In this document: piece by piece, positions 19,906 to 62,075 of the stretch
Position numbering within the stretch: position 1 is the stretch's first letter
Layout: the number at the start of each line of letters is the position of its first letter
Source of the DNA: a virus
Taxonomy: Duplodnaviria; Heunggongvirae; Uroviricota; Caudoviricetes
Direction: 5' to 3' (one strand)
IMG/VR virus record: IMGVR_UViG_2576861193_000004
Coordinates: 42,259-106,258 of that record
DNA length: 64,000 bases
Made by a program: the position numbers and the translations under genes
Notes under the pieces: model-generated
What the model saw: the letters and a program-made list of their open reading frames with translations, nothing else
What the model was told of the DNA's origin: nothing
Databases searched by the model: none

Positions 19906-21465
19906 ATGACTGTTCGGATTGTATCTAACGCAGTAAATGCACTTATTTCTGGCGCAGATGACAAGGTAAAGCAACTGGTGCAACAGATGTTGAGCTACGA
20001 AGTCGAGACTGGCGACTGGAAGGGCACAAGCACGATGTTCAACTGGAGTAAAAACTCGTTCCCTGCTGGCTTTGCCAAGCCTGTAGCGGCGAACTTGAAC
20101 AAGGCGGGCATCAAATGTGTTCATATCCGCAAAGACAAAGCCCCGGCGCTTGGAAAGCCAAATCCGGCGGTCAACCCATTCCCATACAATCCTGATTATG
20201 CATATCAGGATCAGACTGTGGAAACACTGGTTCGAGAGGGAATGATGATTGCGCAGATCGCTACTGGTGGCGGGAAATCTAATGTTGCCTGCAAAGCAGC
20301 TGCACGTATCGGTCGAATGACATTATTTTTAACAACCCGCTCTGTTCTGATGTTTCAGATGGCCGAAAACTTCCAGAGATCCATCGACTACCGCGCCGAA
20401 AATGGCGAACCGTGGTTAAAAGACCAAAAGGTTGGAGTCATTGGCTCGGGTGAGTTCCAGGTATCACGACATATCAACGTCGCTACAGTTCAAACTCTGG
20501 CAAGTTTCCTTGAAGAACCACCACGCGATGCAACTCCAGATAAGAAGAGCTACCACCTCAAACGTCGGGACTTGGTGAAACGCTTCCTTTCAAGTGTGTC
20601 TCTTCTTATTCTGGAAGAGGCGCATGAGTCTTCAGGCTCTAATTTCTATGACATCGCCAGATTATGTGCGAACGCAGACTATCGCCTGGCGCTTACGGCA
20701 ACGCCGTTCATGAAGGATTCTACGGAAGCCAACATGCGTCTGATGGCAGTGGCCGGGCGAATTGAAATAAAAGTCACGGAAAAGTATCTGATTGATAGAG
20801 GCATTCTGGCAAAGCCATACTTCCTTTATCATAAAGTTGCCTACAAGCCGGACGAGGCCAGAATCAAGGCAGAACTTGCCAACAAACACCTCAATTTTAG
20901 AGTAGGTATGAGCACTGCCTACCAAAAGGCTTATCAGTTGGGGATCGTGTATAATTTGGGACGTAATGAGGCCATTGTTCGCGAAGCATTGCTCTATAAG
21001 CAACATTCTCTCAATTGTATGACTCTGGTTCGTCTTAAACGCCACGGGCAAATCCTGATGGAAATGATGAAAGAGTCCGGCCTTAGAGTTGACTTCATTT
21101 ATGGGGAATCGAACCAGTCGACAAGGCAAGCAAAGCTGAACAGTTTAGCGTCTGGCGACATAGATGTTTTAATAGGCTCGACTATTCTGGATGTCGGTGT
21201 TGATGTGCCAAACGTTGGTGCGGTCATTCTTGCTGGTGGTGGGAAAGCAGAAGTTGAAATGAGACAACGTGTCGGTCGTGGCTTACGAGCCAAGAAGAAT
21301 CAGGCAAACGTGTGTTTTGTCACTGATTTCATTGACATTAGCAACAAATACCTGTTGTCTCACTCTTATGAGCGAAAACACATCATCGACACCACACCTG
21401 GCTTTGCAGAAGGTGTATTGCCTGTTGATGGCGCATTCGATTTTGGAGTTCTGAAACGAGATTAG
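19906..21465 (+). CDS. SF2 DEAD/DEAH-box DNA helicase
   Basis: 519 aa; Walker A ATGGGKS, DEAH-like LEEAHE, TATP motif, QRVGRGLR motif VI; RBS aggaaagagg upstream. Confidence 0.75.
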   Translation: MTVRIVSNAVNALISGADDKVKQLVQQMLSYEVETGDWKGTSTMFNWSKNSFPAGFAKPVAANLNKAGIKCVHIRKDKAPALGKPNPAVNPFPYNPDYAYQDQTVETLVREGMMIAQIATGGGKSNVACKAAARIGRMTLFLTTRSVLMFQMAENFQRSIDYRAENGEPWLKDQKVGVIGSGEFQVSRHINVATVQTLASFLEEPPRDATPDKKSYHLKRRDLVKRFLSSVSLLILEEAHESSGSNFYDIARLCANADYRLALTATPFMKDSTEANMRLMAVAGRIEIKVTEKYLIDRGILAKPYFLYHKVAYKPDEARIKAELANKHLNFRVGMSTAYQKAYQLGIVYNLGRNEAIVREALLYKQHSLNCMTLVRLKRHGQILMEMMKESGLRVDFIYGESNQSTRQAKLNSLASGDIDVLIGSTILDVGVDVPNVGAVILAGGGKAEVEMRQRVGRGLRAKKNQANVCFVTDFIDISNKYLLSHSYERKHIIDTTPGFAEGVLPVDGAFDFGVLKRD

Positions 21466-21467
21466 TT

Positions 21468-21746
21468 ATGAGCGAAAAGAAAACAACTTATTGCCAAGTG
21501 GCATTGTCTGATAAGGCCAATGAAAAACTTGGAAAATTTCAAATAAAACTCAAAGAGAAAAAAATCAAGATGTCTAAGGCTGAAGTTATCAATGCCATTC
21601 TGGAGACGATGACTATGGCTGAATTTGACAAAGTCACATCTGCCGTTGGGGTTTCCGCTAAGACGCGTGAGAAAATCATGCGCATCTATGAGAACTCCAA
21701 TATGACAAAAAAAGATCTAGAGGAAATACTGAGCAGGTTGCCGTAA
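21468..21746 (+). CDS. hypothetical small protein
   Basis: 92 aa ORF starting 3 nt after helicase stop. Confidence 0.3.
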   Translation: MSEKKTTYCQVALSDKANEKLGKFQIKLKEKKIKMSKAEVINAILETMTMAEFDKVTSAVGVSAKTREKIMRIYENSNMTKKDLEEILSRLP

Positions 21747-21811
21747 CATTTCATATTTACCCCCTATCTACTAATTCTATGATGTGCTCACTTGTTAGAA
21801 AGGAGCACATC

Positions 21812-22378
21812 ATGAGTTGGTTAAAAGAATTATCATTTGTTGACACCACTGGCGCTAAGAAAAATCATTCTTTCTGGAAAGTCAGCGATCCTTCTGATTT
21901 TCTTGTTGGTGCTAATGCTGCTTTTGAATTGCTTAACTTTTATCAACGTTATCCTGAAATGAAACACAGTCCACTCCTGTACAGAATAACAAACGATATG
22001 AATAGGTCTGGTTTATTATCAAGTGAGTCAGCGAAAGGCTTTTTTAGCAAAATTACGCCACACATATCATTCGATTCAGCAAACGAAATTGATTATCTAC
22101 CCACGAAACCTCAAGAACAATTATCTGTACCACCTGAGAAAAAAGAAAGACGAATTTCCAGCATTGAAAATATATCGAAAGAGCTTCGCACAACAACGTT
22201 GAGGCTGCTGAACTTTCTTACGCTACTTAATTGGATAGATGATCAAACATTGATTCCATCAACCGATGCGTTGGATAACAGAGTCCTTAGGCTGAACAAA
22301 AAATCGCAATTTGGTTTTGTGTTCACCAAAAAAGGTGAAGATTTAATCAAAAGAAAATATAGATTATTGAATGATTAA
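21812..22378 (+). CDS. hypothetical protein
   Basis: Start set at MSWLKELSF (ATG 21812) preceded by GGAG; ORF track start 21779 would lie inside an inverted repeat. Confidence 0.3.
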   Translation: MSWLKELSFVDTTGAKKNHSFWKVSDPSDFLVGANAAFELLNFYQRYPEMKHSPLLYRITNDMNRSGLLSSESAKGFFSKITPHISFDSANEIDYLPTKPQEQLSVPPEKKERRISSIENISKELRTTTLRLLNFLTLLNWIDDQTLIPSTDALDNRVLRLNKKSQFGFVFTKKGEDLIKRKYRLLND

Positions 22379-22523
22379 TAGTCTACATGCAGGTGTATGA
22401 GAGCACCTGCATGTGACACTCATCACATTTTTTGAAGCACACACCTCCGGCTGAAAAAATTTCTTGATTGGCTGAACGATATTTGTAGGCTTTTCAATTG
22501 ATAACTAAGGTCGGATACTGTAG

Positions 22524-23012
22524 ATGAGTATTTCTATAAACAAAATAATTAACTCTTTACGACATAAAATATCACATGGAAAAGATGTTCTTTTTAAAGA
22601 AAAATATTATCTATTCAACTTAGAGCCGTACAAATGTACAAAATTTTATATCACTCGGAACCGTAAATATTCAGTTTCAATCACAAAAGACATGAAGAAA
22701 ATCTCTTCAGAAGAGTACTTCATATCACATATTTATATCTACCCATTTAAATTAGAACCATTAAATATAATTCTTCCTACAATAAAAGGGGTTGAACTTG
22801 AAGGTTATACTTTAAGCTCTAACTTTAATGATATGGGTGTACAAAAACCAGGGACAAGGTCATACTACGCCTACAAAGTAAAATGCAATAACTACAACGC
22901 ACTTAACATGCTAATCAGCAAACTTGAAACGGAGATAGTCGAAGGAAATCTAAATGATGATCATGAAAAATTAGAACAAATAGAAAAACTTAGAAAGTGT
23001 GATGTTAAATAA
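22524..23012 (+). CDS. hypothetical protein (AT-rich, Lys/Tyr/Asn-rich)
   Basis: 162 aa; first gene of translationally coupled trio; lower GC than flanks. Confidence 0.3.
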   Translation: MSISINKIINSLRHKISHGKDVLFKEKYYLFNLEPYKCTKFYITRNRKYSVSITKDMKKISSEEYFISHIYIYPFKLEPLNIILPTIKGVELEGYTLSSNFNDMGVQKPGTRSYYAYKVKCNNYNALNMLISKLETEIVEGNLNDDHEKLEQIEKLRKCDVK

Positions 23013-23627
23013 TTGGATTATCATGATATGAAAATGAAACTTTCGTTACTCCTTGCTTGTATATACCTCCCGGCGTTTCCCGCCAACGCATTATCAGATT
23101 TCGTCTCTGACATGCAAAAAACGTACAGCATGTTTACCTCCGAAGACGTAGTAGAATACAAATCACGAGGTCTGAATCAGCCAGTTTGGTTCAGATTCTC
23201 AGACAACGCAGAAGAAACAATACTTAATGGAGGAAAAGAAAGATTACGGTTGCAAATTAACGGGACCGCTGTACCAGAAAACGTTAATGTAAGCTCTGAC
23301 GAAGCCATGAAGCCATCTGGAATTGTTTTAGAAGTTCAAGACGGCACACTTTACTGTGATGAAATGGCTACAACAGGTTGCCAAGTAAACATTAGGGTTG
23401 GCAATGAAGAGCCTATCGTTACTTACGCCAAGGCTGAAGGGAATACAAGTGGAAAGGTATTGTTTATCGATGAAAATATCTCAAAACGTATCGTTCGTGA
23501 CATACAGAAAACAGCTAACTCTAAATCCGTCGATAAAAAAATCTATGTTGAGGTTCCCTTCTTTGTCGTTGGTAACAAAGAATTTAAATTTGGGTTGCTG
23601 AAAACACCTCTAAGAGTATCAGAATGA
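23013..23627 (+). CDS. hypothetical secreted protein (Sec signal peptide)
   Basis: N-terminus MKMKLSLLLACIYLPAFPANA with AxA cleavage-like site; start abuts previous stop. Confidence 0.35.
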   Translation: MDYHDMKMKLSLLLACIYLPAFPANALSDFVSDMQKTYSMFTSEDVVEYKSRGLNQPVWFRFSDNAEETILNGGKERLRLQINGTAVPENVNVSSDEAMKPSGIVLEVQDGTLYCDEMATTGCQVNIRVGNEEPIVTYAKAEGNTSGKVLFIDENISKRIVRDIQKTANSKSVDKKIYVEVPFFVVGNKEFKFGLLKTPLRVSE

Positions 23628-24148
23628 GAACATTGGACATCACCTACGGCATACCGGCTGAAGTCTGGCCGCGAGACTACGAACATGCTGAGAACATACT
23701 TATGTTCTGGCGGAAGAACAACATTCCTGTAAGAGTCACGCTTGAAGACGGTCAGGTGTTTTGCATGTACGTTCAGGGGACAATGCCTTCACGCAATAAG
23801 CTAGATTTATGCCCGATTCCATATGATAAAGAAAATCGTATAAGACTCCCACTTGAGCGCATTAGCACAATTGAATCAGGTGTAATCGATGGCATTGCTC
23901 GCGAGTTCAAAGGTAGGCTAACAATACATCCAGACTATGTTGACAATCAGCCATCACGCCGTGACTTTTTTGCGATATGTCGCAAGGCTTATCAAAACGA
24001 CCAATCTATAAGGGTCTACATGACAGACGGTCGTGAAATAGAAGGGGTGTCAAGAGGCGTTGATGCTTGCCAGGTCACTCTTAAGTTAGAAGACGGCAGA
24101 AAAATACTTGTTTTCTTCGATTGGGTTGAACGAATCCTTCCATTTTAA
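23624..24148 (+). CDS. hypothetical protein
   Basis: 174 aa; 4-nt overlap with upstream gene; followed by hairpin terminator. Confidence 0.3.
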   Translation: MRTLDITYGIPAEVWPRDYEHAENILMFWRKNNIPVRVTLEDGQVFCMYVQGTMPSRNKLDLCPIPYDKENRIRLPLERISTIESGVIDGIAREFKGRLTIHPDYVDNQPSRRDFFAICRKAYQNDQSIRVYMTDGREIEGVSRGVDACQVTLKLEDGRKILVFFDWVERILPF

Positions 24149-24160
24149 ATCTATAAGGGT

Positions 24161-24190
24161 AATAACCGGCTAAGTCCGGTTATTATTTTA
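24161..24190 (+). terminator. rho-independent terminator after accessory operon
   Basis: aataaccgg-ctaagt-ccggttatt perfect 9-bp stem followed by atttta. Confidence 0.5.
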
Positions 24191-24341
24191 CATGCCATTC
24201 ATTTAAAACTCTTTCAATGCCACCCCGTATAAATATATAAGGTTAAAGGCCCGAATTGATTATTTATTTAGGGAACACCTTCGACGATCTCGCTTTTATT
24301 TCTAGGACTTTCATCCCTGCAGAAAATTTAAAAAAAAACAC

Positions 24342-24370
24342 TTGCAATCTTTTTTCACGTATTGATAATT
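24342..24370 (+). promoter_or_regulatory. sigma70-like promoter for gene 24444-25094
   Basis: TTGCAA (24342-24347), 17-nt spacer, ATAATT (24365-24370); about 70 nt 5' UTR then AAGGA-ATG. Confidence 0.4.
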
Positions 24371-24443
24371 GAACTCGTCGAAAGCGAGCTGGCTAACGAC
24401 AGTAAAAATAAATTCATTTTAATTTTTCGTAAGGATGTCCATC

Positions 24444-25094
24444 ATGGCTAACATTATCATTTCTAAAAAGTCCATCATTGAAGCTGCTGCCATTGTATCC
24501 GACGAGCTGCGCGAAAAAGCAGATCTGGCAACTCAAACATATAACGAACATTATAAAAATGGTACGCACACAAAAGCAGACAAAGCAAACATGCAAGCTG
24601 CGACCACTAAACTTGCTTACTTCATCAACAACGTTGTGAACGCAGTAGAAGACGAAAAATTATGCTCTGTTTTCTACTATGCGATTAAAGCAAGCAAACA
24701 AGCGCCAGAAGTATTTTTCCGTGATGCAATGACTAATAGTTATTCTCTGGAAAAACTGGTTTATCTGGTTAAATCAATTAAATCTGGTAAATGCGTTTAC
24801 TCCATCGCTGATATGTCTGGATCTCGTGTATTCGCTTTAATCGATATGATTAACGACGAGATCGACACGTTCACCAATGGCGCTGTTTTCGATTTAATGA
24901 ATGAAGCTAAAAAAGCGTGCGAAATTAAATTGGACGCTGGCTATACTCAAGCCAACCAGTTGATCAATCTTTGCGAACGTCTTGGACTTGTTGAGAAAGT
25001 CAAAGGAATGGGAAGCGCAAAAGCTGGTACGCAGCAATATCGCTTTATTAAAAATGATTTCTATAACTATCTGGCTGATGCTTTCAAAGCGTAA
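24444..25094 (+). CDS. hypothetical protein (stand-alone, own promoter and terminator)
   Basis: Start set at MANIIISKK with RBS AAGGA; 217 aa; no family recognised. Confidence 0.35.
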   Translation: MANIIISKKSIIEAAAIVSDELREKADLATQTYNEHYKNGTHTKADKANMQAATTKLAYFINNVVNAVEDEKLCSVFYYAIKASKQAPEVFFRDAMTNSYSLEKLVYLVKSIKSGKCVYSIADMSGSRVFALIDMINDEIDTFTNGAVFDLMNEAKKACEIKLDAGYTQANQLINLCERLGLVEKVKGMGSAKAGTQQYRFIKNDFYNYLADAFKA

Positions 25095-28991: not shown

Positions 28992-29129
28992 CCGCCGTTC
29001 CTGAACCGGCATCGAGCCTTTTCCCGAAATCCACACAGGCAACTCGACCGTTTCCCTGAAAACCTCCAGCCGTTCCCCGAAGGCAACCCAGCCGTTTCTG
29101 TAGCGGGATGCAGCCTTTTCCCTGTATGG
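28992..29129 (+). repeat. iteron-like direct repeat array (6 copies, GCC(G/T)TT(T)CC core)
   Basis: cgccgttcctgaa / gagccttttcccgaaat / cgaccgtttccctgaaaac / cagccgttccccgaagg / cagccgtttctgtagc / cagccttttccctgtat at about 22 bp spacing; same family as array at 25861-25981. Confidence 0.5.
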
Positions 29130-29229
29130 ACCTAAGGCTGACCGTAGGGGTGTTACGGGGGATAAAATCAGGAGTTGATTAAATACGAAAAAGGAGGCGA
29201 CACCCCTCCTTCCCTCCCCACTTATACAT

Positions 29230-29995
29230 ACCTGTCTTGTTCGCTATACATGTTGTGTTTTCTTCGTGTTTTATCTGTCTCAACCTCTCTATAGGCGTTA
29301 ATGCTCACTCCTTCCAGAATGTTCTATACGGCGACTATTTCTGTTGGTGAATTGGGTGTGTTGTTTTCTCTGTCGGTGTATGTGGTTTCGTTCGTTTTGC
29401 GGTGGTTCTTCTATGGGGTGTTCTCGTCGTTTTGGTGATTGTTCTTCTCCGTGTATGGAGTAATGGCAGGTGGGCGATTCCTTTCGTTATTGTGTTTGAG
29501 TTGTTTGTCTGGAGTGTGAAAGGCTTTTGTAGTTATTCGTGTATTGGGTAATGGCGTTTCCCGTGATTGTTATGTTTCGTGTCTTTTGGGATTGAGAGAA
29601 ACCTTGCGGTTACAGGCTTCGTTGGGGTTTCAGTGATTCTGGTGTTTCTTCGCTGTTTGGGTAATGGCGTGTCGTGGGTATCGCGCGTATGAATGTTTTC
29701 GGATTGCCTGTGAAAGTTAGGTTGGTTGTCCGGTAGCCTGGGGAGAAGAGGTGGGTCTTTTCGGTAGCCTGCCATAAAGAGGTTGGTTGTTTTGGGGAAT
29801 GGCATGTGTGTTATTTAGTTGTTTTGTTATGCCTGAAAATAAGTTGTTTATATGGTTGTGTAACGCAACGGGAACGATTTTGAGCGTGTGTTTTTGTTGG
29901 TGGTGTGTTGGGTCGTCTGTGGTGAAAATTGGACGCTGTGGCGCTGTCTGCTGCGTAGAATTACGGGTATAAGAAGTGATGTGTGAATACGTCAA
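29230..29995 (+). other. ORF-free tract with extreme G+T strand bias (C+A-rich on minus strand)
   Basis: Plus strand almost devoid of A and C over about 0.75 kb; only low-complexity ORFs on minus strand; contains CGGTAGCCTG..AGAGGTKGGT motif also present at 26555-26620. Confidence 0.5.
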
Positions 29996-30192
29996 TTTTT
30001 TAGACCAAATCGGGTGAAAGCGTTGACGTTTCGTTGATCTGTTATTCAGTTGTTTTCTTATTGGTATAAACAACGTTAACCTATTGATATTTAAAGGTGT
30101 GATTGCAGGTATGGAAGGAGAGTAGTGGCGATCAACAGATTCTTATAGAAAAGAATCAAATTGTGACCGCCATTATCAATAAGTTGCAACCG

Positions 30193-34926: not shown

Positions 34927-35316
34927 CTACATCACGGGACAATCATCAAACTCGCCACTTCTTGCGTCGTTGATAATGTGAGTGATCACACCAAACACGG
35001 CATTGCTGCCCGTGCATCCATCGTCATCCTTTGGCAATGCTTCCTTCTTACCGGTTCTTAAATCCTCCAGATGCTGACGTGGGTACTTCCGGTATCTTTT
35101 TACGCGATATTCCCCATCCAGAGCGCATACAAGCAGAGAACCATCAACCGGGGTAAGTGAGGAATCGACCACCAGCAATGCACCCTGTAATATTCCCTCA
35201 CGATGATGACTATCAGCTGCCCTCATGAAGTAGGTCGCTGAAGGATGTCTAATTATCTGCTGATCAAGAGAAATACGGCTCTCAGCATAATCCGCCGCAG
35301 GAGAAGGGAAGCCCAT
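34927..35316 (-). CDS. umuD: UmuD'-like peptidase S24 protein (P1 HumD-like; encoded without the UmuD N-terminal arm)
   Basis: 129 aa starting MGFPSPAADY, which matches UmuD just after its autocleavage region; LexA box 20 bp upstream. Confidence 0.75.
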   Translation of the reverse strand: MGFPSPAADYAESRISLDQQIIRHPSATYFMRAADSHHREGILQGALLVVDSSLTPVDGSLLVCALDGEYRVKRYRKYPRQHLEDLRTGKKEALPKDDDGCTGSNAVFGVITHIINDARSGEFDDCPVM

Positions 35317-35334
35317 AGCGTTTTCACCTCAGAG

Positions 35335-35354
35335 TACTGTTTATCCATACAGTA
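35335..35354 (-). promoter_or_regulatory. LexA (SOS) box
   Basis: Gene-strand TACTGTATGGATAAACAGTA = CTGT-N8-ACAG consensus, followed by GAGG RBS and ATG of the umuD'-like gene. Confidence 0.7.
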
Positions 35355-35414
35355 TACATTAAAGATGCTTGAAGTGTGCAATAGCGCGATGCTTTGCGCT
35401 CGCCTGGTGGCGCG

Positions 35415-35678
35415 TTATTTTTTGGCTATATCTTCTTTCTGATATACCGGATCGTTTCCTTTTGGCAGCAGGAGGCTTAACTGCCGGTAGTGCCGTAGCC
35501 GTTCCATGAAATAGGTGCGCAGGTTCTCAGGTTGCTCACGGGCTACCTGTTCCGCTATGACGGGTATGTTCAATCGCTCTTTGTAGGCAACCCCCCTGGC
35601 AGCCAGGTCAACGTTAACTTTATTCCTTTCTTCCTGGCTTTTAGCTGCTATGTTCCATTCGTTCATATTAAATCCCAT
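35415..35678 (-). CDS. holE: DNA polymerase III theta subunit homolog (P1 Hot-like)
   Basis: [42 protein letters not shown] closely parallels E. coli theta [42 protein letters not shown]; true start may be the internal MNEWNIAAK. Confidence 0.65.
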
Positions 35679-36134
35679 CCAGAATAATTGAATAACGGCT
35701 ATTATTTAGTCGCCGCAATATCTTCAAAGTTTTTTTTCTCACCCCATTGCTTTTTGCGCACAGCTTATCTGGCTTGCGGTGCGCGAAATGTAAATTCGCC
35801 TTCAGAGTTATCCACAAAGTTATGCACTTGCAACGGGGCCATTTTCCTCATACCGTGTTTGCACACACAGGAAATGGATATTTTATTAATTGAATTTTAT
35901 TAAATAATAATGATAAGGAGAAAATTTGAGATGTAATCATGACATTAATAGATAGGGCCTGCATTACAGGCCCCAACTACATCAAGGAATTCACAGTTCC
36001 CTGATTTTTATACCGAAAACATGTGCCGTAAGTTCACGTTAACGACTTTCTTTCACCGAATCCAACTATATAGAGGTTGGGTTTCTACGTCAACGTGAGA
36101 GCACGCAGCTTTACATTAGACGAGGATTACCCTG

Positions 36135-36272
36135 ATGATTGTATTTTTTCAGTTTCTAAGTGCATTTTTAAATGCGCCTGTTCTTAGCCAAGTGCTGGCG
36201 ATTGTCTTCATCGTGGTTCTGATATGGTTTTTCAAGTCAGTGATAAACAGAGGCGTGCGCTGGCTTATTTAA
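36135..36272 (+). CDS. small hydrophobic peptide (45 aa), possible membrane toxin-like protein
   Basis: MIVFFQFLSAFLNAPVLSQVLAIVFIVVLIWFFKSVINRGVRWLI; RBS gagga 8 nt upstream; below ORF-track size cutoff. Confidence 0.3.
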   Translation: MIVFFQFLSAFLNAPVLSQVLAIVFIVVLIWFFKSVINRGVRWLI

Positions 36273-36804
36273 TGTCGCGATGAGATATTAATTCCCTTGC
36301 TGTTTAACCATTTTTTGTGTGTGCTGGTGAGCGTGTGAAGGCTCAATTTGTTGCCCACCAGTATTTACTATTTCTAAGCTCCACAGTGTCACTTCCGCAC
36401 AAACAACTTAGCGCGGAATCAGTATTCGGCCCAAGATGTAAAAAGCCAACCTGCGTTATGGTTCGCATTTCCAAATAGTGTTCTGAACGCCCTTGCCGGG
36501 CGCGAGATGTAGATTAGCGTTCACGCTATGCTGATATACGGCTTTAGACTTTCCATATTGCTGACAGGCTTTATCTGCGGTTTTTTGCAGGCTATCCAGC
36601 CCATACCAGCCATCAGACTGGATGCTTACCTTTTCACCGTCATTGTATTGCACCATCGCGCACCCAAACATGGCTATCATCGCACCGACAATACCACTTT
36701 TCCAAAAAGCTCTAATTAGGTCATTCGTTACCTAATGTCCGAACTGCTAAAGCATCCAAGTTGCTGTAGAATCACCGCCAATTACATAAGCCTGAAATAA
36801 GTGG

Positions 36805-38367
36805 ATGAAAATGACAAGTATTCAACAACGTGCAGAGCTTCATCGTCAAATCTGGCAAATTGCTAACGATGTCAGGGGTTCGGTCGATGGATGGGATTTT
36901 AAGCAATACGTTCTGGGCGCACTTTTCTACCGTTTTATCAGCGAAAATTTTTCCAGTTATATTGAAGCCGGTGATGACAGTATCTGTTATGCGAAACTGG
37001 ATGACAGCGTAATTACTGATGACATTAAAGACGATGCCATCAAAACTAAAGGCTACTTCATCTACCCCAGTCAGCTTTTCTGCAACGTAGCTGCGAAAGC
37101 AAATACTAATGACAGACTGAATGCAGATTTAAACAGCATCTTCGTTGCTATCGAAAGTTCTGCTTACGGTTATCCTTCAGAAGCAGACATCAAAGGTTTG
37201 TTTGCTGATTTCGATACCACCAGTAACCGCCTGGGTAACACCGTTAAAGATAAAAATGCCCGCCTGGCTGCGGTTCTGAAAGGGGTTGAAGGGTTAAAAC
37301 TTGGTGACTTCAACGAACATCAGATTGACCTGTTCGGTGATGCCTATGAGTTCCTGATTTCTAACTATGCGGCAAATGCCGGTAAGTCAGGCGGTGAGTT
37401 CTTTACACCGCAGCACGTCTCCAGGCTGATTGCACAACTGGCAATGCATGGCCAGACCCACGTTAACAAAATCTACGACCCGGCAGCGGGTTCCGGCTCA
37501 CTGTTGTTGCAGGCGAAAAAACAGTTTGATAACCACATCATCGAAGAAGGCTTTTTCGGTCAGGAAATCAACCATACGACCTATAACCTGGCGCGTATGA
37601 ACATGTTTTTGCACAATATCAACTACGACAAGTTTGATATCAAGCTGGGTAATACACTGACTGAGCCGCACTTCAGAGATGAAAAACCGTTTGACGCCAT
37701 CGTATCTAACCCACCGTATTCGGTGAAATGGATTGGCAGCGATGACCCGACGCTGATTAACGATGAGCGTTTTGCCCCGGCTGGCGTTCTGGCCCCCAAA
37801 TCCAAAGCTGACTTTGCGTTTGTATTACATGCACTGAACTATCTTTCTGCCAAAGGTCGTGCTGCGATTGTCTGCTTCCCGGGTATTTTTTACCGTGGCG
37901 GCGCGGAGCAGAAAATCCGTCAGTATCTGGTCGATAATAACTATGTCGAAACCGTGATTTCACTGGCACCGAACCTGTTCTTTGGCACCACCATTGCAGT
38001 AAACATTCTGGTGCTGTCTAAACATAAAACGGATACCAACGTTCAGTTTATTGACGCCAGCGAACTGTTCAAAAAAGAGACTAACAACAATATCCTGACC
38101 GATGCCCATATCGAACAGATTATGCAGGTATTTGCCAGCAAGGAAGATGTTGCTCATCTGGCGAAATCTGTCACGTTTGAGACCGTTGTCGCGAATGACT
38201 ATAACCTGTCGGTAAGCAGCTATGTGGAAGCGAAAGATACTCGCGAAATTATCGATATCGCTGAGTTGAATGCAGAACTGAAAACCACGGTCAGCAAAAT
38301 CGACCAGTTGCGTAAAGATATTGATGCGATTGTGGCTGAAATTGAAGGCTGCGAGGTGCAGAAATGA
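36805..38367 (+). CDS. hsdM: Type I restriction-modification methyltransferase subunit
   Basis: 520 aa; AdoMet motif [10 protein letters not shown], catalytic NPPY (VSNPPYS); start of next gene overlaps stop by 4 nt. Confidence 0.95.
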
Positions 38368-39599
38368 GCGAGTTGAGTTATCTGGAAAAATTGCTGGATG
38401 GGGTTGAGGTTGAGTGGTTGCCATTGGGGAAACTAGGTGAATTAGTTCGTGGAAATGGATTGCCTAAGTCTGATTTTACCGAATCTGGGGTTCCTGCCAT
38501 ACACTATGGTCAGATATATACTTTTTACGGATTATCTACTGAAACAACAAAGTCATTTGTTTCCCATGAAACGGCGAAGAAGCTTAAAAAGGTTAACTCT
38601 GGTGATGTTGTTATTACTAACACAAGCGAAAATTTTACTGATGTTGGTAAGGCGCTTGTTTATCTAGGTAAAGAGCAAGCTGTTACTGGTGGCCATGCAA
38701 CTATTTTCAAGCCAAATAGCACTATTATTGGGAAATACTTTGCCTATTTCACGCAAACGGATTCTTTTGCAAATGAGAAAAGGAAATACTCCAAGGGAAC
38801 TAAAGTAATTGATGTGTCTGCATCGGATATGGCGAAAATTATTATCCCTATCCCCTGTCCGGAAAATCCCAAAAAATCCCTTGCTATCCAGTCTGAAATC
38901 GTTCGGATTCTGGACAAATTTACTGCACTTACCGCTGAGCTTACCGCTGAGCTTACCATGCGTAAAAAACAGTACAACTACTATCGCGACCAATTGCTGA
39001 GTTTTAAAGAAGGTGAGGTTGAGTGGAAAACTTTGGGAGAAGTGGCTCAATACTCGAAAACAAGAATTAGTTTCGAACTACTTGATGAAAGGAATTATGT
39101 TGGCGTAGATAATCTGCTGCAAAACAGAGCAGGAAAATCATTATCTAATCATGTACCCACATCAGGTAAATTAACGGAGTTTATACCTAACGATATACTG
39201 ATTGGGAATATCCGCCCATATTTGAAAAAAATTTGGCAAGCAGATTGTATCGGTGGAACAAATGGCGATGTATTGGTTATTCGTTGCATAGATAGCTCAA
39301 TAAATACCAGATATCTATATCAGATTTTGGCAGATGACAAATTCTTTGAATACAACATGCAGCATGCTAAAGGAGCAAAAATGCCGCGTGGCAGTAAAGA
39401 GGATATAATGAAATACCCAATCCCTGTACCGCCACTCACCTTGCAAGCTCGCATTGTCGAAATACTCAACAAATTCGATACCCTGACAAACTCCATCACT
39501 GAAGGTCTTCCGCGTGAAATCGAATTACGCCAGAAACAATACGAATACTACCGTGATTTACTGTTCAGTTTCCCAAAACCTGAAACTGTCAGTAATTAA
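38364..39599 (+). CDS. hsdS: Type I restriction-modification specificity subunit
   Basis: 411 aa; conserved N-terminal, central ([42 protein letters not shown]) and C-terminal ([35 protein letters not shown]) regions separating two variable target-recognition domains. Confidence 0.9.
38931..38954 (+). repeat. tandem 12-bp repeat (ACCGCTGAGCTT x2) encoding TAEL-TAEL in the HsdS central spacer
   Basis: accgctgagctt accgctgagctt read directly in sequence. Confidence 0.8.
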
Positions 39600-39720
39600 T
39601 TGACCATTGCTACCGACCGGGCCACCTTAACACCCGGTCTGTATATAGACTATTTTTTACGCGCCGGAAGTCACTCTTAACGCCCTTCCGGCCCTTGCCA
39701 GGCGGCACAAAGGATGCGCT

Positions 39721-42700
39721 ATGACTCATCAAACACACACCATTGCTGAATCCAATAACTTTATCGTCCTTGATAAGTACATCAAAGCTGAGCAAACAAG
39801 CGACAGCTACCAGAGCGAATCGGACCTGGAACGTGAACTGATTCAGGACCTGCGGAATCAGGGTTATGAATTTATTTCCGTAAAATCACAGTCGGCAATG
39901 CTGTCCAATGTTCGGGAACAGCTTCAGAGCCTCAATGGTGTGATGTTTAATGACAGCGAGTGGCGGCGCTTCACGGAGCAGTATCTGGACAATCCCAGCG
40001 ATGGTATTCTGGATAAGACCCGTAAAATCCATATCGACTATATCTGCGACTTTATTTTTGACGACGGGCGTCTTGAGAACATCTATCTGATCGATAAAAA
40101 GAATCTCATGCGCAACAAAGTGCAGATTATCCAGCAGTTTGAACAGGCAGGTTCTCATGCTAACCGTTATGACGTCACGATCCTGGTTAATGGCTTGCCT
40201 CTGGTGCAAATCGAACTGAAAAAGCGCGGCGTGGCGATTCGTGAGGCTTTCAACCAGATACATCGTTACAGCAAAGAGAGTTTTAACAGCGAAAATTCCC
40301 TGTTTAAGTATCTGCAACTGTTTGTCATTTCTAACGGCACCGATACCCGTTATTTTGCCAACACCACAAAGCGCGATAAAAACAGTTTTGACTTCACCAT
40401 GAACTGGGCGAAATCAGACAACACGCTGATTAAAGACCTCAAAGACTTTACCGCTACCTTTTTCCAGAAACATACCCTGCTTAATGTTCTGGTGAACTAC
40501 AGCGTGTTTGACAGTAGTCAGACGCTACTGGTGATGCGACCGTACCAGATTGCAGCTACCGAACGGATCTTATGGAAAATCAACAGCTCCTATAAAGCGA
40601 AAAACTGGTCTAACCCCGAAAGCGGTGGCTTTATCTGGCACACCACTGGTTCCGGTAAAACACTGACCAGCTTTAAAGCCGCGCGTCTGGCAACTGAACT
40701 GGACTTTATTGATAAAGTCTTCTTCGTGGTCGACAGGAAAGACCTCGATTACCAGACCATGAAGGAATATCAGCGTTTTTCGCCAGACAGCGTCAACGGC
40801 TCGGAAAATACCGCAGGTCTTAAACGAAATCTGGATAAGGACGATAACAAAATTATCGTCACCACTATTCAGAAACTTAATAACCTGATGAAAGCAGAAA
40901 GCGACCTGCCTGTATACAATCAGCAAGTGGTGTTTATATTTGATGAATGCCACCGCAGCCAGTTTGGAGAAGCGCAGAAAAACCTGAAGAAGAAATTCAA
41001 ACGCTATTATCAGTTTGGTTTTACCGGCACCCCTATTTTCCCGGAAAATGCCTTAGGCTCAGAAACGACCGCCAGCGTATTTGGTCGTGAATTGCATTCG
41101 TATGTAATTACCGATGCGATTCGTGACGAAAAAGTGCTCAAATTCAAGGTGGACTACAACGATGTGCGGCCACAGTTTAAGTCTTTAGAGACAGAAACTG
41201 ACGAGAAAAAACTGAGTGCGGCTGAAAATCAGCAGGCGTTTCTTCATCCCATGCGTATTCAGGAAATCACGCAATATATCCTGAACAACTTCCGCCAGAA
41301 GACTCACCGTACTTACCCCGGCTCCAAAGGTTTTAATGCCATGCTGGCAGTAAGCAGCGTGGATGCCGCGAAAGCCTATTACGCGACGTTTAAACGGTTA
41401 CAAGAGGAAGCCGCTAATAAATCTGCTACCTATAAACCACTGCGTGTTGCGACAATCTTCTCCTTTGCCGCCAATGAAGAACAAAATGCCATTGGTGAAA
41501 TTTCCGATGAAACTTTTGATACCAGCGCAATGGACAGCAGTGCTAAAGAGTTTCTTGACGCTGCAATTCGTGAGTATAACAGCTATTTTAAAACTAACTT
41601 CAGCACCGACAGTAACGGTTTTCAGAACTACTATCGTGATTTAGCCCAACGGGTTAAAAATCAGGATATCGATCTGTTAATTGTCGTTGGGATGTTTTTA
41701 ACCGGCTTCGACGCTCCAACATTGAACACGCTATTCGTCGATAAAAACTTGCGTTTTCACGGCCTGATGCAGGCATTCTCCCGTACCAACCGCATTTATG
41801 ACGCTACTAAAACCTTCGGTAACATCGTCACTTTTCGGGATCTGGAACGCTCAACCATTGATGCCATAACGCTGTTTGGTGATAAAAATACTAAAAATGT
41901 GGTGTTAGAAAAGAGTTATGCAGAGTATATGGAAGGCTTTACTGATGCTGCTACAGGTGAAGCTAAACGCGGCTTTATGGCAGTAGTTTCAGAACTGGAA
42001 CAACGGTTCCCTGACCCTGCCAGTATTGAAAGTGAAAAAGAGAAGAAAGACTTCGTTAAACTGTTTGGCGAATACCTGCGTGCCGAGAACATCCTGCAAA
42101 ACTATGATGAATTTGCCACGCTGAAAGCCCTGCAACAAATCGATCTTAGCGATCCTGTTGCGGTAGAAAAATTCAAAGAAGAACATTATGTGGATGATGA
42201 AAAGTTCGCTGAATTGCAAACGATTCGTCTCCCTGCTGAACGCAAGATTCAGGATTATCGTTCTGCCTATAACGATATTCGTGACTGGCAGCGCCGCGAG
42301 AAAGAAGCTGATAAAAAAGAAAAATCAACCACTGACTGGGATGACGTGGTTTTTGAGGTCGATTTGCTGAAGTCTCAGGAAATAAACCTGGATTATATCC
42401 TTGGACTGATTTTCGAACACAACAGACAAAATAAAGGCAAGGGCGAAATGATCGAAGAGGTCAAACGCTTAATTCGTTCAAGCCTGGGGAACCGGGCGAA
42501 AGAGGGCCTGGTGGTCGATTTTATTCAGCAAACGAACCTGGATGATTTACCAGACAAAGCCAGCATCATTGACGCGTTCTTTACCTTTGCTCAACACGAA
42601 CAGCTACGTGAAGCAGAAGCGTTGATTAAAGAAGAAAATCTCAATGAAGAGGCGGCGAAACGCTATATTCGCACGTCTTTAAAACGCGAATACGCCACCG

Positions 42701-42837
42701 AAAATGGCACAGAATTAAACGAGACATTACCAAAACTTAGTCCGTTAAACCCGCAATATAAAACGAAAAAACAGACGGTTTTCCAGAAAATCGTCACGTT
42801 TATTGAAAAGTTCAAAGGAGTAGGTGGGCAGATATAG
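39721..42837 (+). CDS. hsdR: Type I restriction enzyme R subunit
   Basis: 1038 aa; helicase motifs [12 protein letters not shown] ([11 protein letters not shown]), endonuclease-type N-terminal region; 120-bp gap after hsdS with no intervening gene. Confidence 0.95.
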
Positions 42838-42895
42838 TGTATTAATCTGAACCAGATCTGGCAGATATCTGTGCAAATTGCAGATAGCTGTCAGA

Positions 42896-43306
42896 TCAAG
42901 CCATCGTAGGGATGTCTGTATCCACTTTGAACTCCGGTACACCAACGAACTCTTTAACCTTCATCTGATAGCCGGTTCTGTCAGTTTTGATGACTTCCTG
43001 CTTGCCCTCGATAAATTGCTCACGCCACTCGTCGCGACGGGAAGCTGGCATGATCAGCAAAACGTTAGTCATATCCGTGACCTTCCTCCAGTACTCGGCC
43101 CAAATATTCTGTTTCACCCATTCCAGATCGACTTTATCCAGCCAAGCTCGATTCAAACGTGAGCGATCTTCATCTGGTCGATGGTTTAGTCTCAGCAGGC
43201 GATTAATCATGTTGTGGCGTTCGTCGCCATAAACGAAGTCGTGTACCTGATACATGAAGGCGATCTCTTTCTCGCACTCGGCCACGATTTCGTGGATGAC
43301 ATTCAT
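42896..43306 (-). CDS. hypothetical protein
   Basis: 136 aa ORF; no family recognised. Confidence 0.3.
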   Translation of the reverse strand: MNVIHEIVAECEKEIAFMYQVHDFVYGDERHNMINRLLRLNHRPDEDRSRLNRAWLDKVDLEWVKQNIWAEYWRKVTDMTNVLLIMPASRRDEWREQFIEGKQEVIKTDRTGYQMKVKEFVGVPEFKVDTDIPTMA

Positions 43307-56391: not shown

Positions 56392-57113
56392 TCCATTAGT
56401 TTCTGTTCAAGTGTCTTCTCCGGCTCGCGAGTTGGCGGCTTCGGAATGTCGTTAACTACGTGAATGCCATCGTTGATCAGAACGCCTGCAGCAATATCTG
56501 CATCAATAATGCTCTGGCCGATGAAATGCCGCATGATGTCAATAAGTTGGCACGCAGCCTTTTCATTCGCGTTGAATACGTGGGGGAGGAGAACTTCAAT
56601 AATCGCTACTTCACATCCCTTCTCGTAAAAGCAGAGTTTCGCCCGCTTTGAAATTGGCGCGTGCCGGTCATAGTCAACAGAGAAGCTGGCGAAGGCAGCA
56701 CCCGGCATTGCAACGTGATCCGCGCGTGCGTTAGCGTGTCGAATCAGATTAGTGAATGCGGTGCTGATGTGCGTCTCCATTGCATTGAAGAGTGCATTTT
56801 CTTGGATGTTCAGCGTTCCGGTTTCAGGAATCACAACGAACCCCGGCCCAGAATGTGGGAGATATCCACCTTCCGTAAATGGATTAATAAGGATCGGCGC
56901 AGTGCTTCCTGACGGCAGATTAGCCAAGCTCGGCATCAAAGGAGTCGATGACAATAGATTGGTTAATACCGAGAACTGGTTGTCGCTGATGTTTACGTTT
57001 TTCCACAAAAGTGCAGGCGGAGTTACTTTTGCTGTATGGTTGTTTATCAGCTTTATAGACTGCATCACGGCAAACATCTGCAAAAACTGCGTGCGGCTCA
57101 AGTTAAACGACAT
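56367..57113 (-). CDS. hypothetical protein
   Basis: 248 aa ORF. Confidence 0.3.
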   Translation of the reverse strand: MSFNLSRTQFLQMFAVMQSIKLINNHTAKVTPPALLWKNVNISDNQFSVLTNLLSSTPLMPSLANLPSGSTAPILINPFTEGGYLPHSGPGFVVIPETGTLNIQENALFNAMETHISTAFTNLIRHANARADHVAMPGAAFASFSVDYDRHAPISKRAKLCFYEKGCEVAIIEVLLPHVFNANEKAACQLIDIMRHFIGQSIIDADIAAGVLINDGIHVVNDIPKPPTREPEKTLEQKLMECPTWATW

Positions 57114-59019
57114 AGCTGCGCCCCTCTTTAACTTCGACAGTGATAATTTCCCGGAACCACGATTTCATCTCTTTGTGGGAGATGATCATCACTGTGCCAC
57201 GTTCACGCGCTTTGGCTTCCAGAATCCCCATGAGACGCTCCAGACCGGCTGTGTCGAGCGCGTCGTCAATTTCATCACCGATAAATAGCTCGATATTCTT
57301 ACTGGCGCGACTGGCAACCAGATCCTGCAAAGCCAGAGAGCACGCAATACGTACCTTACGCTTCTCACCACCAGACAAAGTCTGGAAGGATTTGCTGGAG
57401 CCTGTTTTGATTACGCTGATATTGAATTTGTCGCGATACTCACCTTTCTTCGTTGTCTCCATTGTCGACCATTCGGCAACGATATTGCCGTCCGACAGCG
57501 TGTTGAGATACTCCGCAGTCCTGATGTTCAGGAAAGGCGTAACGGAGGTCAGGATGTGTGAACGCACGCCTGCTGGGGAGTAAACCTGGCGGGCCTTCTC
57601 CAGCAACAGAGCCTGTTCCTGAATGCTCTTTAACTCATTTTTAAGTACTGCATGATTAGATTTATTGGCAGCCAGGTTGTCTTCATGGCGCTTAATAACG
57701 GCCAGAAATGGGTTTGCTTCCGCCATGATGCGATTCACTTCAGTACGCGCCCGCGCAACCATCGCTTCGACGGCCACAACTTCACGTTCGCGATGACGCA
57801 GCGCACTTAGCTCATTGGTCAGGCGTTCTATTGTGGAGATGATTTCTGAGACGTCGGGTGTGGCTGCGACCAGTGCAGACTCGATACCGAGTGCTTTCTC
57901 AAGACGAGTCTTGTGTTGAGCCACTGCCGCTGCTGATGTCTGCGCAAGGCCGATCTCATTGCGCGCTTGTTCAATGAAGCTCTCCTTCACCGTGGATAAA
58001 TCTTCTTCGCAGTAGGGCTTTCCGCACGTAATGCAGGGTGCCCCGATCTTTGTGCTGACCTCTTCAGCTTTGGTTTTAAACGAGCGAGCACGGTTTATCG
58101 ACTCGTTCTGTGCCGCTTCTGAAGTACGGATGCTTGAGCGGATCTCAGTAATAGCACTGCGCACCTTCAGCAGTTTGGCGTCATGCTCTTCTTTGGAGGC
58201 CAGCTTGCTGCGTTCGCCAGCAATCGCATTTTCCGTATCACGGATCTGTTCTGGCAGCGAGCGAATTTCCATCTCGACTTCAGACAGTGTTACCTCCGCG
58301 CCAGCCAAATCGGCTCGGGCCTTGTCCAGACGCTCGCCGCGATCGCGCTCCCAGCTTTCAGAGGACGCTTTGGCCGCCTCAATCTCTGACTGTGCAGTCT
58401 CGATAAGCGTGAGACAGGCGTCCATTTTGGATTTGGTAACGTCCATACGTGCGGCAGCTGCATTAGCACGCTCGCGGGCAATGGCATAGGCTCGCGTCAA
58501 TCGGTCGACGCCAGCAGCTTCTTCAACGATGGTTTTGAGGCTCTTGTCGGACATACCGGGCAGATCTGGCATCGCTTCCTGACTGGCGTAGATGGACGCC
58601 ATGAACACCTCTTTCGATGCCCCAATCAGACGTTCTACGAACGTCTGTGTCAGCGTGTCCTTGCCTTTGGTCATATCACCGTCTTCACCACGGACGATTA
58701 GTCGGTTCTTGAACTCTTTGTGTTTACGATGGCGAATGATCGCGTATTTCTTACCTTCGTCTTCAACTGTAACCATCACACGGCAGTTCTTCTCATGGCC
58801 CGTCGACAGCACGTCATCGCCTTTGACGCCATGTGCAGTCTCACCATACAGACACCACATTAAGCTATTCATCAGAGTGGATTTCCCGGCGCCATTGCTG
58901 GCAGCAGACGTATCGCCACTGTTCACACCCTGGATCAGCACCAGTCCACGCTGGTCTAACTCGACTTCTGCGCTGGCGATTGCCATAAAATTTTCAACCT
59001 GGAGCTTTAAAAACTTCAT
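57103..59019 (-). CDS. sbcC: SbcC/Rad50-like recombination ATPase
   Basis: Start set at MKFLKLQVENFMAI; Walker A NGAGKST, long coiled coil, signature LSGGEKRKV, Walker B FIGDEIDDALD. Confidence 0.75.
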   Translation of the reverse strand: MKFLKLQVENFMAIASAEVELDQRGLVLIQGVNSGDTSAASNGAGKSTLMNSLMWCLYGETAHGVKGDDVLSTGHEKNCRVMVTVEDEGKKYAIIRHRKHKEFKNRLIVRGEDGDMTKGKDTLTQTFVERLIGASKEVFMASIYASQEAMPDLPGMSDKSLKTIVEEAAGVDRLTRAYAIARERANAAAARMDVTKSKMDACLTLIETAQSEIEAAKASSESWERDRGERLDKARADLAGAEVTLSEVEMEIRSLPEQIRDTENAIAGERSKLASKEEHDAKLLKVRSAITEIRSSIRTSEAAQNESINRARSFKTKAEEVSTKIGAPCITCGKPYCEEDLSTVKESFIEQARNEIGLAQTSAAAVAQHKTRLEKALGIESALVAATPDVSEIISTIERLTNELSALRHREREVVAVEAMVARARTEVNRIMAEANPFLAVIKRHEDNLAANKSNHAVLKNELKSIQEQALLLEKARQVYSPAGVRSHILTSVTPFLNIRTAEYLNTLSDGNIVAEWSTMETTKKGEYRDKFNISVIKTGSSKSFQTLSGGEKRKVRIACSLALQDLVASRASKNIELFIGDEIDDALDTAGLERLMGILEAKARERGTVMIISHKEMKSWFREIITVEVKEGRSYVV

Positions 59020-59248
59020 ATAACACCTCTGATATCGTGTGTTAACTTTTGACCATCTTTCAATCTGAACTCCGTATGCGCGGGGAAGGATCTGCGATTC
59101 AATAAGCCTTTTCTGGTTAGCCTTCCAAGATAAAACGCTACGGGATTTCCTCCTGAAGGGTATGGCTTGTGAAACATAACCGTCTGGCCTTTTTGAAGTT
59201 TTTTCATCACGATGGCAAACTCTCGAAAGCTCCCATAATAACGTTGCC

Positions 59249-61460: not shown

Positions 61461-61677
61461 TTATTCACAGGCCCGATCCAATATTTAGATCCCCAGAGAG
61501 ATCCTACAGAAGATCAAAAGAGATCCCAGATCGTCTCCAGCGCTTGCGGTTACTGGCTTGAGAAGGGGTTACTATCCACTATAGGGAGCAAAATAACCAC
61601 TGTAGAGAGCATAATAACCGCTATGAAGAGCAAAACAACCTCTCTGGAGAGTAGTCGGTATCCACTGTAGTGAGTAG
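61461..61677 (+). promoter_or_regulatory. origin-like region copy 1: DnaA box, GATC cluster, iterons
   Basis: TTATTCACA (61461-61469); six GATC within about 70 bp (61475-61542); then 4-5 iterons with core CCACTRTAGRGAG (61571-61677). Confidence 0.6.
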
Positions 61678-61844: not shown

Positions 61845-62075
61845 GGCCCGATCCAGTAATTCAGATCCCTGTTAGAACCAAAGAGAACCACAAAGACCCA
61901 AAGAGATCCCCGGCCCCTGCAAACCGTTGTGCCACATGGCTTTAGAGGTTATCGATATCCACTATAGTGAGAATAACAACCACTATAGAGAGTAAATCAA
62001 CCACTATGGAGAGTAGAAAAACCGCTGTAGGCGGTAGGATAACCACTGTGATGGGTGCTACTATCCACTGTAATC
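61845..62075 (+). promoter_or_regulatory. origin-like region copy 2: DnaA box, GATC sites, iterons upstream of repA
   Basis: TTATACACA (61845-61853) followed by cacaggcccgatccagtaattcagatccc (near-copy of 61466-61492), then 5 iterons (61955-62075). Confidence 0.6.

Follow-up and report, generated by a model that had tools for sequence, protein, structure and literature searches.

Which restriction-modification (R-M) system is encoded by three adjacent hsd genes that occupy a variable slot on an SSU5-like E. coli phage-plasmid, is it complete, and what DNA would it recognise? The window, by which we mean the whole stretch of 64,000 nucleotides that was analysed, also contains a terminase gene, a large ORF of phage-tail type, and iterons together with a Rep3 initiator. 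On its plus strand lie hsdM (36805..38367), encoding a 520-aa N6-adenine DNA methyltransferase subunit, hsdS (38364..39599), encoding a 411-aa specificity subunit, and hsdR (39721..42837), encoding a 1038-aa ATP-dependent translocase and endonuclease subunit. The first two genes overlap by 4 bp (ATGA), and a plus-strand intergenic region of 121 bp (39600..39720) separates hsdS from hsdR. With an upstream leader (36706..36804, plus strand) they form an accessory cassette of 6.1 kb (36706-42837). The M-S-R order and the subunit lengths given in the initial annotation are those of the ORFs found at these positions. Gene callers of the RefSeq type place the HsdM start at the second ATG (36811), giving 518 aa, which matters little. 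The system is already known, and all three exact proteins are present and correctly annotated in NCBI (EFI1521086.1 for HsdS). Assemblies GCA_015672065.1 and GCA_013128715.1 are among those with an identical HsdS. From these and the following comparisons we conclude that the locus is very probably an intact Type IC (EcoR124-family) R-M system, with target-recognition domains (TRDs) other than those of EcoR124I, carried as an accessory cassette of the phage-plasmid.

All three subunits aligned end to end with their EcoR124 counterparts, and frameshifts and stops were absent. HsdM was identical to EcoR124 HsdM (PDB 7bst_D) at 517 of 520 positions (99.4%), with the AAGSGS and NPPY motifs visible in the alignment, and it matched the profiles TIGR00497 (649 bits), PF02384 and PF12161 (Pfam, NCBIfam). 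HsdR was identical at 1010 of 1038 positions (97.3%) to the HsdR of an EcoR124I-type locus, L011, and aligned with PDB 2w00 at a bit score of 2253. It conserves D151/E165/K167, Q179/Y183, GSGKT (K313) and the DECH box (D408/E409), matched TIGR00348 at 760 bits and contains the domains PF04313, PF18766, PF22679 and PF12008 (EcoR124_C; residues 728-1031, E = 1.1e-71). HsdS aligned over its full length with EcoR124I HsdS (PDB 7bst_A; E = 2.6e-77) and contains two Methylase_S domains (Pfam).

These proteins have the composition of a Type I system: a gamma-class N6-adenine methyltransferase (HsdM), a specificity subunit that has two TRDs and, between them, conserved helices (HsdS), and a PD-(D/E)xK nuclease joined to an SF2 motor (HsdR). 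PADLOC called MTase_I, Specificity_I and REase_I, and the Pfam, NCBIfam and PADLOC matches were all well above cut-offs. Within Type I, the HsdM and HsdR identities, the M-S-R order, the HsdS framework with its TAEL repeats and the EcoR124_C domain place the locus in Type IC, and HsdS starts and ends within a conserved region, as Type IC requires. The operon had been described as Type IC-like; Type IC stands, while the qualifier does not suit a locus that belongs to the EcoR124 family and is nearly identical to its prototype. No alignment placed the subunits in Type IA, IB or ID. The best non-IC PDB matches were far weaker, the EcoKI-type HsdM matching over the catalytic core only (E = 7e-17, versus E = 0 for EcoR124), and the M-S-R order and the phage-plasmid location likewise speak against these types. 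Their prototypes (EcoKI, EcoAI and StySBLI, respectively) have the order R-M-S and reside in the chromosomal immigration control region. EcoKI (Type IA) thus shares general Type I architecture and mechanism with the present system but differs in gene order and in its restriction-alleviation control. The classical criterion for family membership is genetic complementation or subunit exchange, and at 97-99% identity exchange with EcoR124I would be expected to succeed.

The Type IC archetype, EcoR124I of plasmid R124 (PDB 2W00, 7BST), has the same gene order, the same 4-bp M/S overlap, the same 121-bp gap and the same two TAEL repeats, and the conserved N-terminal, central and C-terminal regions of its HsdS are 95, 95 and 90% identical to those found here. 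It differs in that both TRDs are unrelated and in that it resides on an IncF plasmid and not on an SSU5-like phage-plasmid. EcoR124II (R124/3) belongs to the same family and has the same subunits but has three TAEL repeats and an N7 spacer, as compared to two repeats here. The arrangement typical of the family recurs on IncF plasmids and on a chromosomal island adjoining a tRNA-Leu gene.

The third Type IC relative, EcoprrI (prrABCD), is alike in its hsdM-hsdS-hsdR framework, but only there does the anticodon nuclease gene prrC lie between hsdS and hsdR; its TAEL repeats number three and its target is CCA N7 RTGC (PMC3874165). The initial annotation had seen an empty gap here and drawn attention to the absence of prrC. 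The gap is indeed empty (no ORF of at least 50 aa within 39600-39720), which sets the locus apart from prrC-coupled Type IC systems. A hidden gene was also considered and rejected, the gap being too short and 121 bp in every context compared. However, the absence of prrC does not distinguish the locus within its family. Across five contexts, one of them locus L011, a plasmid with the true EcoR124I HsdS, the gap keeps its length at about 93-100% identity. Uninterrupted S-R junctions were found in 1,234 of 5,426 complete E. coli genomes and account for 1,314 of the 1,342 matching E. coli records (~98%). Therefore, lack of prrC is the family default and the ordinary state of the EcoR124 family, and prrC is an exception confined to EcoprrI (review PMC3874165).

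It could be speculated that the cassette nevertheless belongs to an abortive-infection module of the PrrC type, with the anticodon nuclease gene at another place on the element, and PrrC-bearing Type I loci have been reported in P1-like and SSU5-like phage-plasmids (bioRxiv 10.1101/2025.09.12.675607). At the locus itself the overlapping hsdM and hsdS and the short S-R gap leave no room for prrC, a Pfam scan of the window's larger ORFs did not find a PrrC-like protein, and on the cassette PADLOC reported nothing but Type I R-M components. The sole ABC/SMC-type ATPase found was the ORF at 57103-59265, which adjoins a metallophosphatase gene. We consider the chance of such a module to be close to nil.

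The gap does hold two conserved stem-loops (predicted fold -37.7 kcal/mol, z = -2.4) and one promoter-like hexamer pair (39627-39656), and it presumably carries the hsdR promoter, as would be expected of Type I loci in general. The leader at 36706..36804 is presumed to contain the hsdMS promoter region. Consensus scans for promoters and terminators gave counts matching those in shuffled sequence (for promoters, 15 sites versus 11.7 +/- 4.1, no better than chance) and were therefore kept out of the evidence. An Rfam scan of the whole window returned no family at threshold.

In contrast to the near-identical framework, the two domains that would set specificity are of different origin from those of EcoR124I. 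TRD1 (38430..38843, plus strand; aa 23-160) and TRD2 (39036..39419, plus strand; aa 225-352) have 16% and about 4% identity, respectively, to their EcoR124I counterparts, in agreement with the initial annotation that they are unrelated. Because both differ, the target sequence should differ too, and judged from HsdS it cannot be the GAA N6 RTCG of EcoR124I. Each domain behaves as a module: TRD1 recurs at 98-100% identity in many HsdS proteins that have a different TRD2 (e.g., P0058-P0075, P0109), and TRD2 recurs at 99-100% identity joined to four or more other types of TRD1 (e.g., P0017, P0041, P0078, P0090). Reading the specificity from solved structures was rejected. For TRD1 the resemblance to the EcoKI N-TRD is weak (E = 5e-5), and generic S-subunit folds are all that TRD2 matches; with similarity this distant, a half-site is not transferable.

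Between the TRDs, a 12-bp tandem repeat, CTTACCGCTGAG, is present in 2.5 copies (38928..38957, plus strand; TRF) and encodes TAEL-TAEL at aa 190-197, the central repeats that had been noticed at first reading. The TAEL repeat is the spacer-length determinant, and the roles of TRDs and TAEL repeats are experimentally established in the EcoR124 family (review PMC3874165). Two repeats predict an EcoR124I-like spacing, in which 7 nt would separate the methylated adenines (N6 if the site is 3+4). Other alleles with the same TRD pair differ in this region: P0009 (407 aa) has one TAEL repeat, and the CFSAN061769 allele is 12 bp (4 aa) longer (hsdS 1248 bp, 415 aa). The sequence is TAEL-TAKL-TAEL in P0016 (415 aa), a relative that is more divergent. 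One TRD pair thus occurs with one repeat, with two, or with four extra residues, and the EcoR124I/II switch operates by TAEL repeat change. One possibility is therefore that the main role of the locus is to switch specificity by phase variation. Slippage or unequal crossing-over at the 12-bp repeat would then toggle the spacer, and the system would serve variable epigenetic regulation instead of fixed defence. However, with only 2.5 copies of the unit a low switching rate is expected, and the repeat change in EcoR124 is a rare recombination and not high-frequency phase variation. Such a switch would also be compatible with ordinary defence. We regard a mainly phase-variable role as very unlikely.

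How did this specificity come to lie in an SSU5-like element? BLASTN identity with loci L003-L010 of P1-like phage-plasmids starts at 36706, the left edge of the module that they have in common. The P1-like cassettes (e.g., those loci and phages phi456 and vB_EcoM-673R5), which are kept intact, encode a 100% identical HsdS and are 98.6% identical to the present cassette in DNA over 6,132 bp, whereas their flanks consist of phd/doc and pmg-type genes where the present cassette has a humD/hot segment and a DUF4942 gene that is truncated. The identity is uneven. A tract at 36731..41285, which takes in the greater part of hsdM, the whole of hsdS and the first half of hsdR, has three mismatches in 4,555 bp against locus L003 (99.9% identical). 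In the sister SSU5-like plasmid pHXH-2, divergence at 37299-38330 is about 4% (45 differences), and both TRDs are different ones. Beyond 41286, in the 3' third of hsdR, L003 and pHXH-2 are each about 5% diverged. With only three differences from the P1-like cassettes, the tract suggests that homologous exchange took place recently and changed the specificity. A stronger claim, that this exchange was very recent, took place between two unrelated phage-plasmid families and was possibly selected for a common specificity, is conceivable but on balance doubtful. If it were true, one common R-M specificity would let phage-plasmids that circulate together infect one another's hosts and would allow them to co-reside without mutual restriction. 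A literature search for the cassette in P1-like or SSU5-like elements gave no match; surveys refer to R-M and PrrC systems of such phage-plasmids in a general way only.

The boundaries bear on how the cassette moved. To its left, as first annotated, lie minus-strand genes for an S24 peptidase (UmuD/HumD-like; 34927-35316) and a DNA polymerase III theta (hot) homologue (35415-35678), and to its right are phage moron-type genes. The humD/hot segment is P1-like. Adjoining the hsdR stop codon is a scar that marks the boundary: a DUF4942/DNA methyltransferase gene is reduced there to its 5' part (42896..43306, minus strand), which covers only positions 23-150 of the 548-position phrog_6263 'DNA methyltransferase'; in phage Cyrano the same slot holds an intact 561-aa gene, CYRAN_90. 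No direct or inverted repeats were found bracketing the cassette. Transposon-like boundaries were therefore rejected, and homologous recombination is favoured over transposition.

The mosaic structure of hsdR raises the possibility that the cassette is restriction-deficient, with a working M2S enzyme and an HsdR that is inactive or poorly expressed, leaving a modification or epigenetic role only. The 3' third of the gene (41286-42552) is from a different lineage than the remainder, the 28 amino-acid differences from EcoR124I may affect function, and chromosomal copies are sometimes decayed, as in strain S56, where hsdM is interrupted by IS1. On the other hand, HsdR is full length with all known nuclease and ATPase motifs conserved. 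The substitutions are mostly conservative (1024/1038 positives), none falls in a known catalytic motif, and several are also present in HsdR of the P1-like cassette. A restriction-deficient cassette is thus unlikely, and a complete, presumably functional Type IC system is the reading that we prefer.

Such a system would presumably be expressed and active. By analogy with the almost identical EcoR124I enzyme, HsdS and two HsdM would form the methyltransferase, whose two TRDs would read a bipartite asymmetric target and direct methylation of one adenine on each strand. Addition of HsdR would give R1-2M2S1, which would stay bound at an unmethylated target, pull in flanking DNA with ATP and cut at a distance. 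An anticodon nuclease would not be coupled to this activity.

The locus can be labelled confidently as an EcoR124-family Type IC R-M system of non-EcoR124I specificity. Its importance beyond annotation is small, and the finding is real but ordinary. If the recognition motif is uncharacterised, it would be one further entry in the catalogue of Type IC specificities. The locus is a clean example of two well-known processes, the shuffling of TRDs and hsdS and the exchange of defence cassettes at a variable slot, the latter in this case between phage-plasmid families.

The three genes of the restriction-modification (RM) cassette lie on the plus strand, and in the ORF list they occupy exactly the coordinates of the initial annotation: hsdM at 36805-38367 (520 aa), hsdS at 38364-39599 (411 aa), overlapping hsdM by 4 bp, and hsdR at 39721-42837 (1038 aa). 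No frameshifts were found in hsdM, hsdS or hsdR. HsdM matched TIGR00497 (649 bits) together with N6_Mtase and HsdM_N (Pfam, NCBIfam), HsdS matched Methylase_S in two stretches (Pfam/NCBIfam), and HsdR matched TIGR00348 (760 bits), HSDR_N, SWI2_SNF2, a T1R_D3-like domain and EcoR124_C (Pfam, NCBIfam). PADLOC reported Type I RM components and nothing else. The profile and PADLOC assignment of the three products is far beyond chance.

HsdM and HsdR were compared with all PDB chains. Of its 520 positions, HsdM shares 517 with the M subunit of EcoR124 (7bst_D), and HsdR aligned with EcoR124I HsdR (2w00) over residues 1-1038 (2253 bits); 1010/1038 residues are shared with the HsdR of a plasmid encoding the true EcoR124I HsdS. 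The second-ranked HsdM matches in the PDB fell far below EcoR124. Because the EcoR124 match is near-identical while HsdM of EcoKI (Type IA) matched with just E 7e-17, confined to the catalytic core, the Type IC assignment proposed at the outset holds, and placement in Type IA, IB or ID is not borne out by the PDB comparison. HsdM retains the AAGSGS and NPPY motifs, and HsdR keeps the nuclease residues D151, E165 and K167, the QxxxY motif (Q179, Y183), the Walker A motif GSGKT (K313) and the DECH box (D408, E409). The cassette can be classed with confidence as a textbook case of the EcoR124 family (Type IC), and the enzyme is probably expressed and active, given the integrity of its genes and its near-identity to a biochemically characterised enzyme.

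The initial annotation had also remarked on the lack of the anticodon nuclease gene prrC between hsdS and hsdR. The gap (39600-39720, 121 bp) is indeed empty, but this does not set the locus apart: a 521-bp probe running from the hsdS 3′ end across the gap into the hsdR 5′ end was contiguous in 1,314 of 1,342 matching E. coli records. The contiguous junction occurs in 1,234 of 5,426 complete E. coli genomes, on chromosomes and plasmids. The plasmid NZ_LR882053.1, whose HsdS is 99.8% identical to that of EcoR124I, carries hsdM, hsdS and hsdR with an identical 121-bp gap, and when five contexts were aligned (the window, the EcoR124I-type plasmid, a P1-like phage-plasmid, a chromosomal island and the sister plasmid pHXH-2) the gap was about 93-100% identical with no indels. 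An empty gap is the norm and absence of the anticodon nuclease is the default state of the family; prrC is particular to the EcoprrI locus (PMC3874165).

Two predicted stem-loops lie inside the gap (39617-39692; fold z = -2.4) and are kept in all contexts compared. The stems are mostly conserved. Loci differ in the second loop and at one stem pair, which alternates between G-C, G-U and A-U. We take the gap to be a putative hsdR regulatory region. EcoKI is known to transcribe hsdMS and hsdR from distinct promoters, as is EcoR124I. A consensus promoter scan was uninformative.

HsdS aligned over its full length with that of EcoR124I (E 2.6e-77). The conserved parts are 95% (N-terminal, aa 1-22), 95% (central, aa 161-224) and 90% (C-terminal, aa 353-411) identical, whereas the target-recognition domains TRD1 (aa 23-160) and TRD2 (aa 225-352) share 16% and about 4% identity with their counterparts, in line with the earlier reading that the TRDs look unrelated. 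Their similarity to structurally characterised TRDs is remote. The central TAEL repeats seen earlier were recovered in the translation, where a 19-residue stretch forms two repeats, the same number as in EcoR124I, and independently by Tandem Repeats Finder (2.5 copies of a 12-bp unit at 38928-38957). EcoR124I, with two repeats, recognises GAA N6 RTCG, and EcoR124II, with three, recognises GAA N7 RTCG; EcoDXXI and EcoprrI also have three, and half-site specificity moves with a TRD swap (Loenen et al. review, PMC3874165). Read in this light, the unrelated TRDs and two TAEL repeats point to a bipartite target other than that of EcoR124I, with EcoR124I-like spacing.

The same TRD pair occurs in a natural one-repeat allele (P0009, 407 aa) and in a chromosomal allele longer by four residues (strain CFSAN061769, 415 aa), so the known spacer-switch mechanism appears to work on this hsdS allele too. 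TRD1 and TRD2 each recur at 98-100% identity fused to several other partner TRDs, the modular shuffling that is classical for Type IC S subunits.

Neither the cassette nor the TRD1+TRD2 combination is new, and the system is already known. The exact HsdS (EFI1521086.1 / UPI000400C9A9), HsdM (in a 518-aa form) and HsdR (WP_025670503.1) are public and correctly named, and NCBI tags fragments of the same 90% cluster as 'EcoR124 family'. The full combination is uncommon in finished records, with matches of about 96-97% identity in one PLSDB plasmid and six complete E. coli chromosomes.

The window belongs to an SSU5-like phage-plasmid. It carries terminase, thymidylate synthase, metG and apbC-like genes and a 1,526-aa ORF matching in size the tape measure protein of the SSU5 group, and its DNA is 95-97% identical to phage Cyrano, CMS-2020a and E. 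coli plasmids of about 110 kb, pHXH-2 among them. A Rep3-type initiator ORF (62118-63173) is preceded by two 21-bp iteron arrays (61576-61651 and 61959-62030, about 3.5 copies each), and together these form the plasmid replicon of the element. About 850 bp at 29200-30050 are G+T-rich on the plus strand, with no credible ORF and no match to Rfam families; strand bias is strong at 29001-30000 (GC skew +0.24, AT skew -0.35). This stretch may encode a non-coding RNA or serve the SSU5-like backbone as a regulatory region or origin. Positions 21000-25000 have low GC (33-41% versus about 48% in the rest of the window) and several plus-strand ORFs of 160-220 aa, possibly another accessory island.

The corresponding slot in Cyrano and PhiR41_1 is bounded by the S24 peptidase gene and a conserved gene downstream, and contains an intact 561-aa DUF4942 / DNA methyltransferase gene and ea22-like morons. 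In the window this content is replaced, from left to right, by a P1-like segment, a small ORF, the RM cassette and a DUF4942 remnant. The P1-like segment (35300-36330), set in the SSU5-like backbone directly to the left of the cassette, is about 81% identical to humD-hot-upfO-upfN of phage P1 and includes a minus-strand hot homologue with a DNA polymerase III theta subunit domain (35415-35678), in agreement with the hot/umuD′-like module first noted there. The 74-aa ORF (36456-36680, minus strand) is a full-length match to phrog_7757, to which no function is assigned, and lies between this segment and the cassette, just beyond the left edge of the module shared with P1-like loci. The remnant (42896-43306, minus strand) retains the first ~135 codons, as against the intact Cyrano gene. 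The RM island took the place of the rest of the DUF4942 gene and the ea22/eaa-like morons. A chromosomal copy of the cassette also adjoins a DUF4942 gene. No repeats bracketing the cassette were found.

The identical HsdS protein is present on at least 24 public contigs, and all the locations listed are P1-like phage-plasmids in which the cassette adjoins phd/doc. The shared module spans 36706-42837, including the leader upstream of hsdM (36706-36804), at 98.6% identity (BLASTN), and its right edge is exactly the hsdR stop codon. Column-by-column comparison with a P1-like locus (L003), pHXH-2 and the chromosomal copy resolved a mosaic whose breakpoints inside the cassette are sharp. Up to 37298, pHXH-2 is identical to the window bar one site; from 37299 on it is about 4% diverged, with both TRDs different. 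Across 36731-41285, only 3 of 4,555 positions differ from L003 (99.9% identity). The tract 41286-42552 diverges by about 5% from L003 and pHXH-2 alike, which suggests a third parent for this part of hsdR, and is partly nearer the chromosomal copy; 42553-43100 is pHXH-2-like again.

The simplest reading is that a Type IC cassette was already resident, and that homologous recombination with its counterpart on a P1-like phage-plasmid recently replaced the central 4 kb, the whole of hsdS included. Phage-plasmids and plasmids have been described, in general terms, as trading defence systems, RM systems above all (PMC10879196), and both RM and PrrC systems are on record for elements of the P1 and SSU5 groups (bioRxiv 10.1101/2025.09.12.675607). 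The recent inter-family exchange of hsdS would be the sole mildly notable point of this locus.
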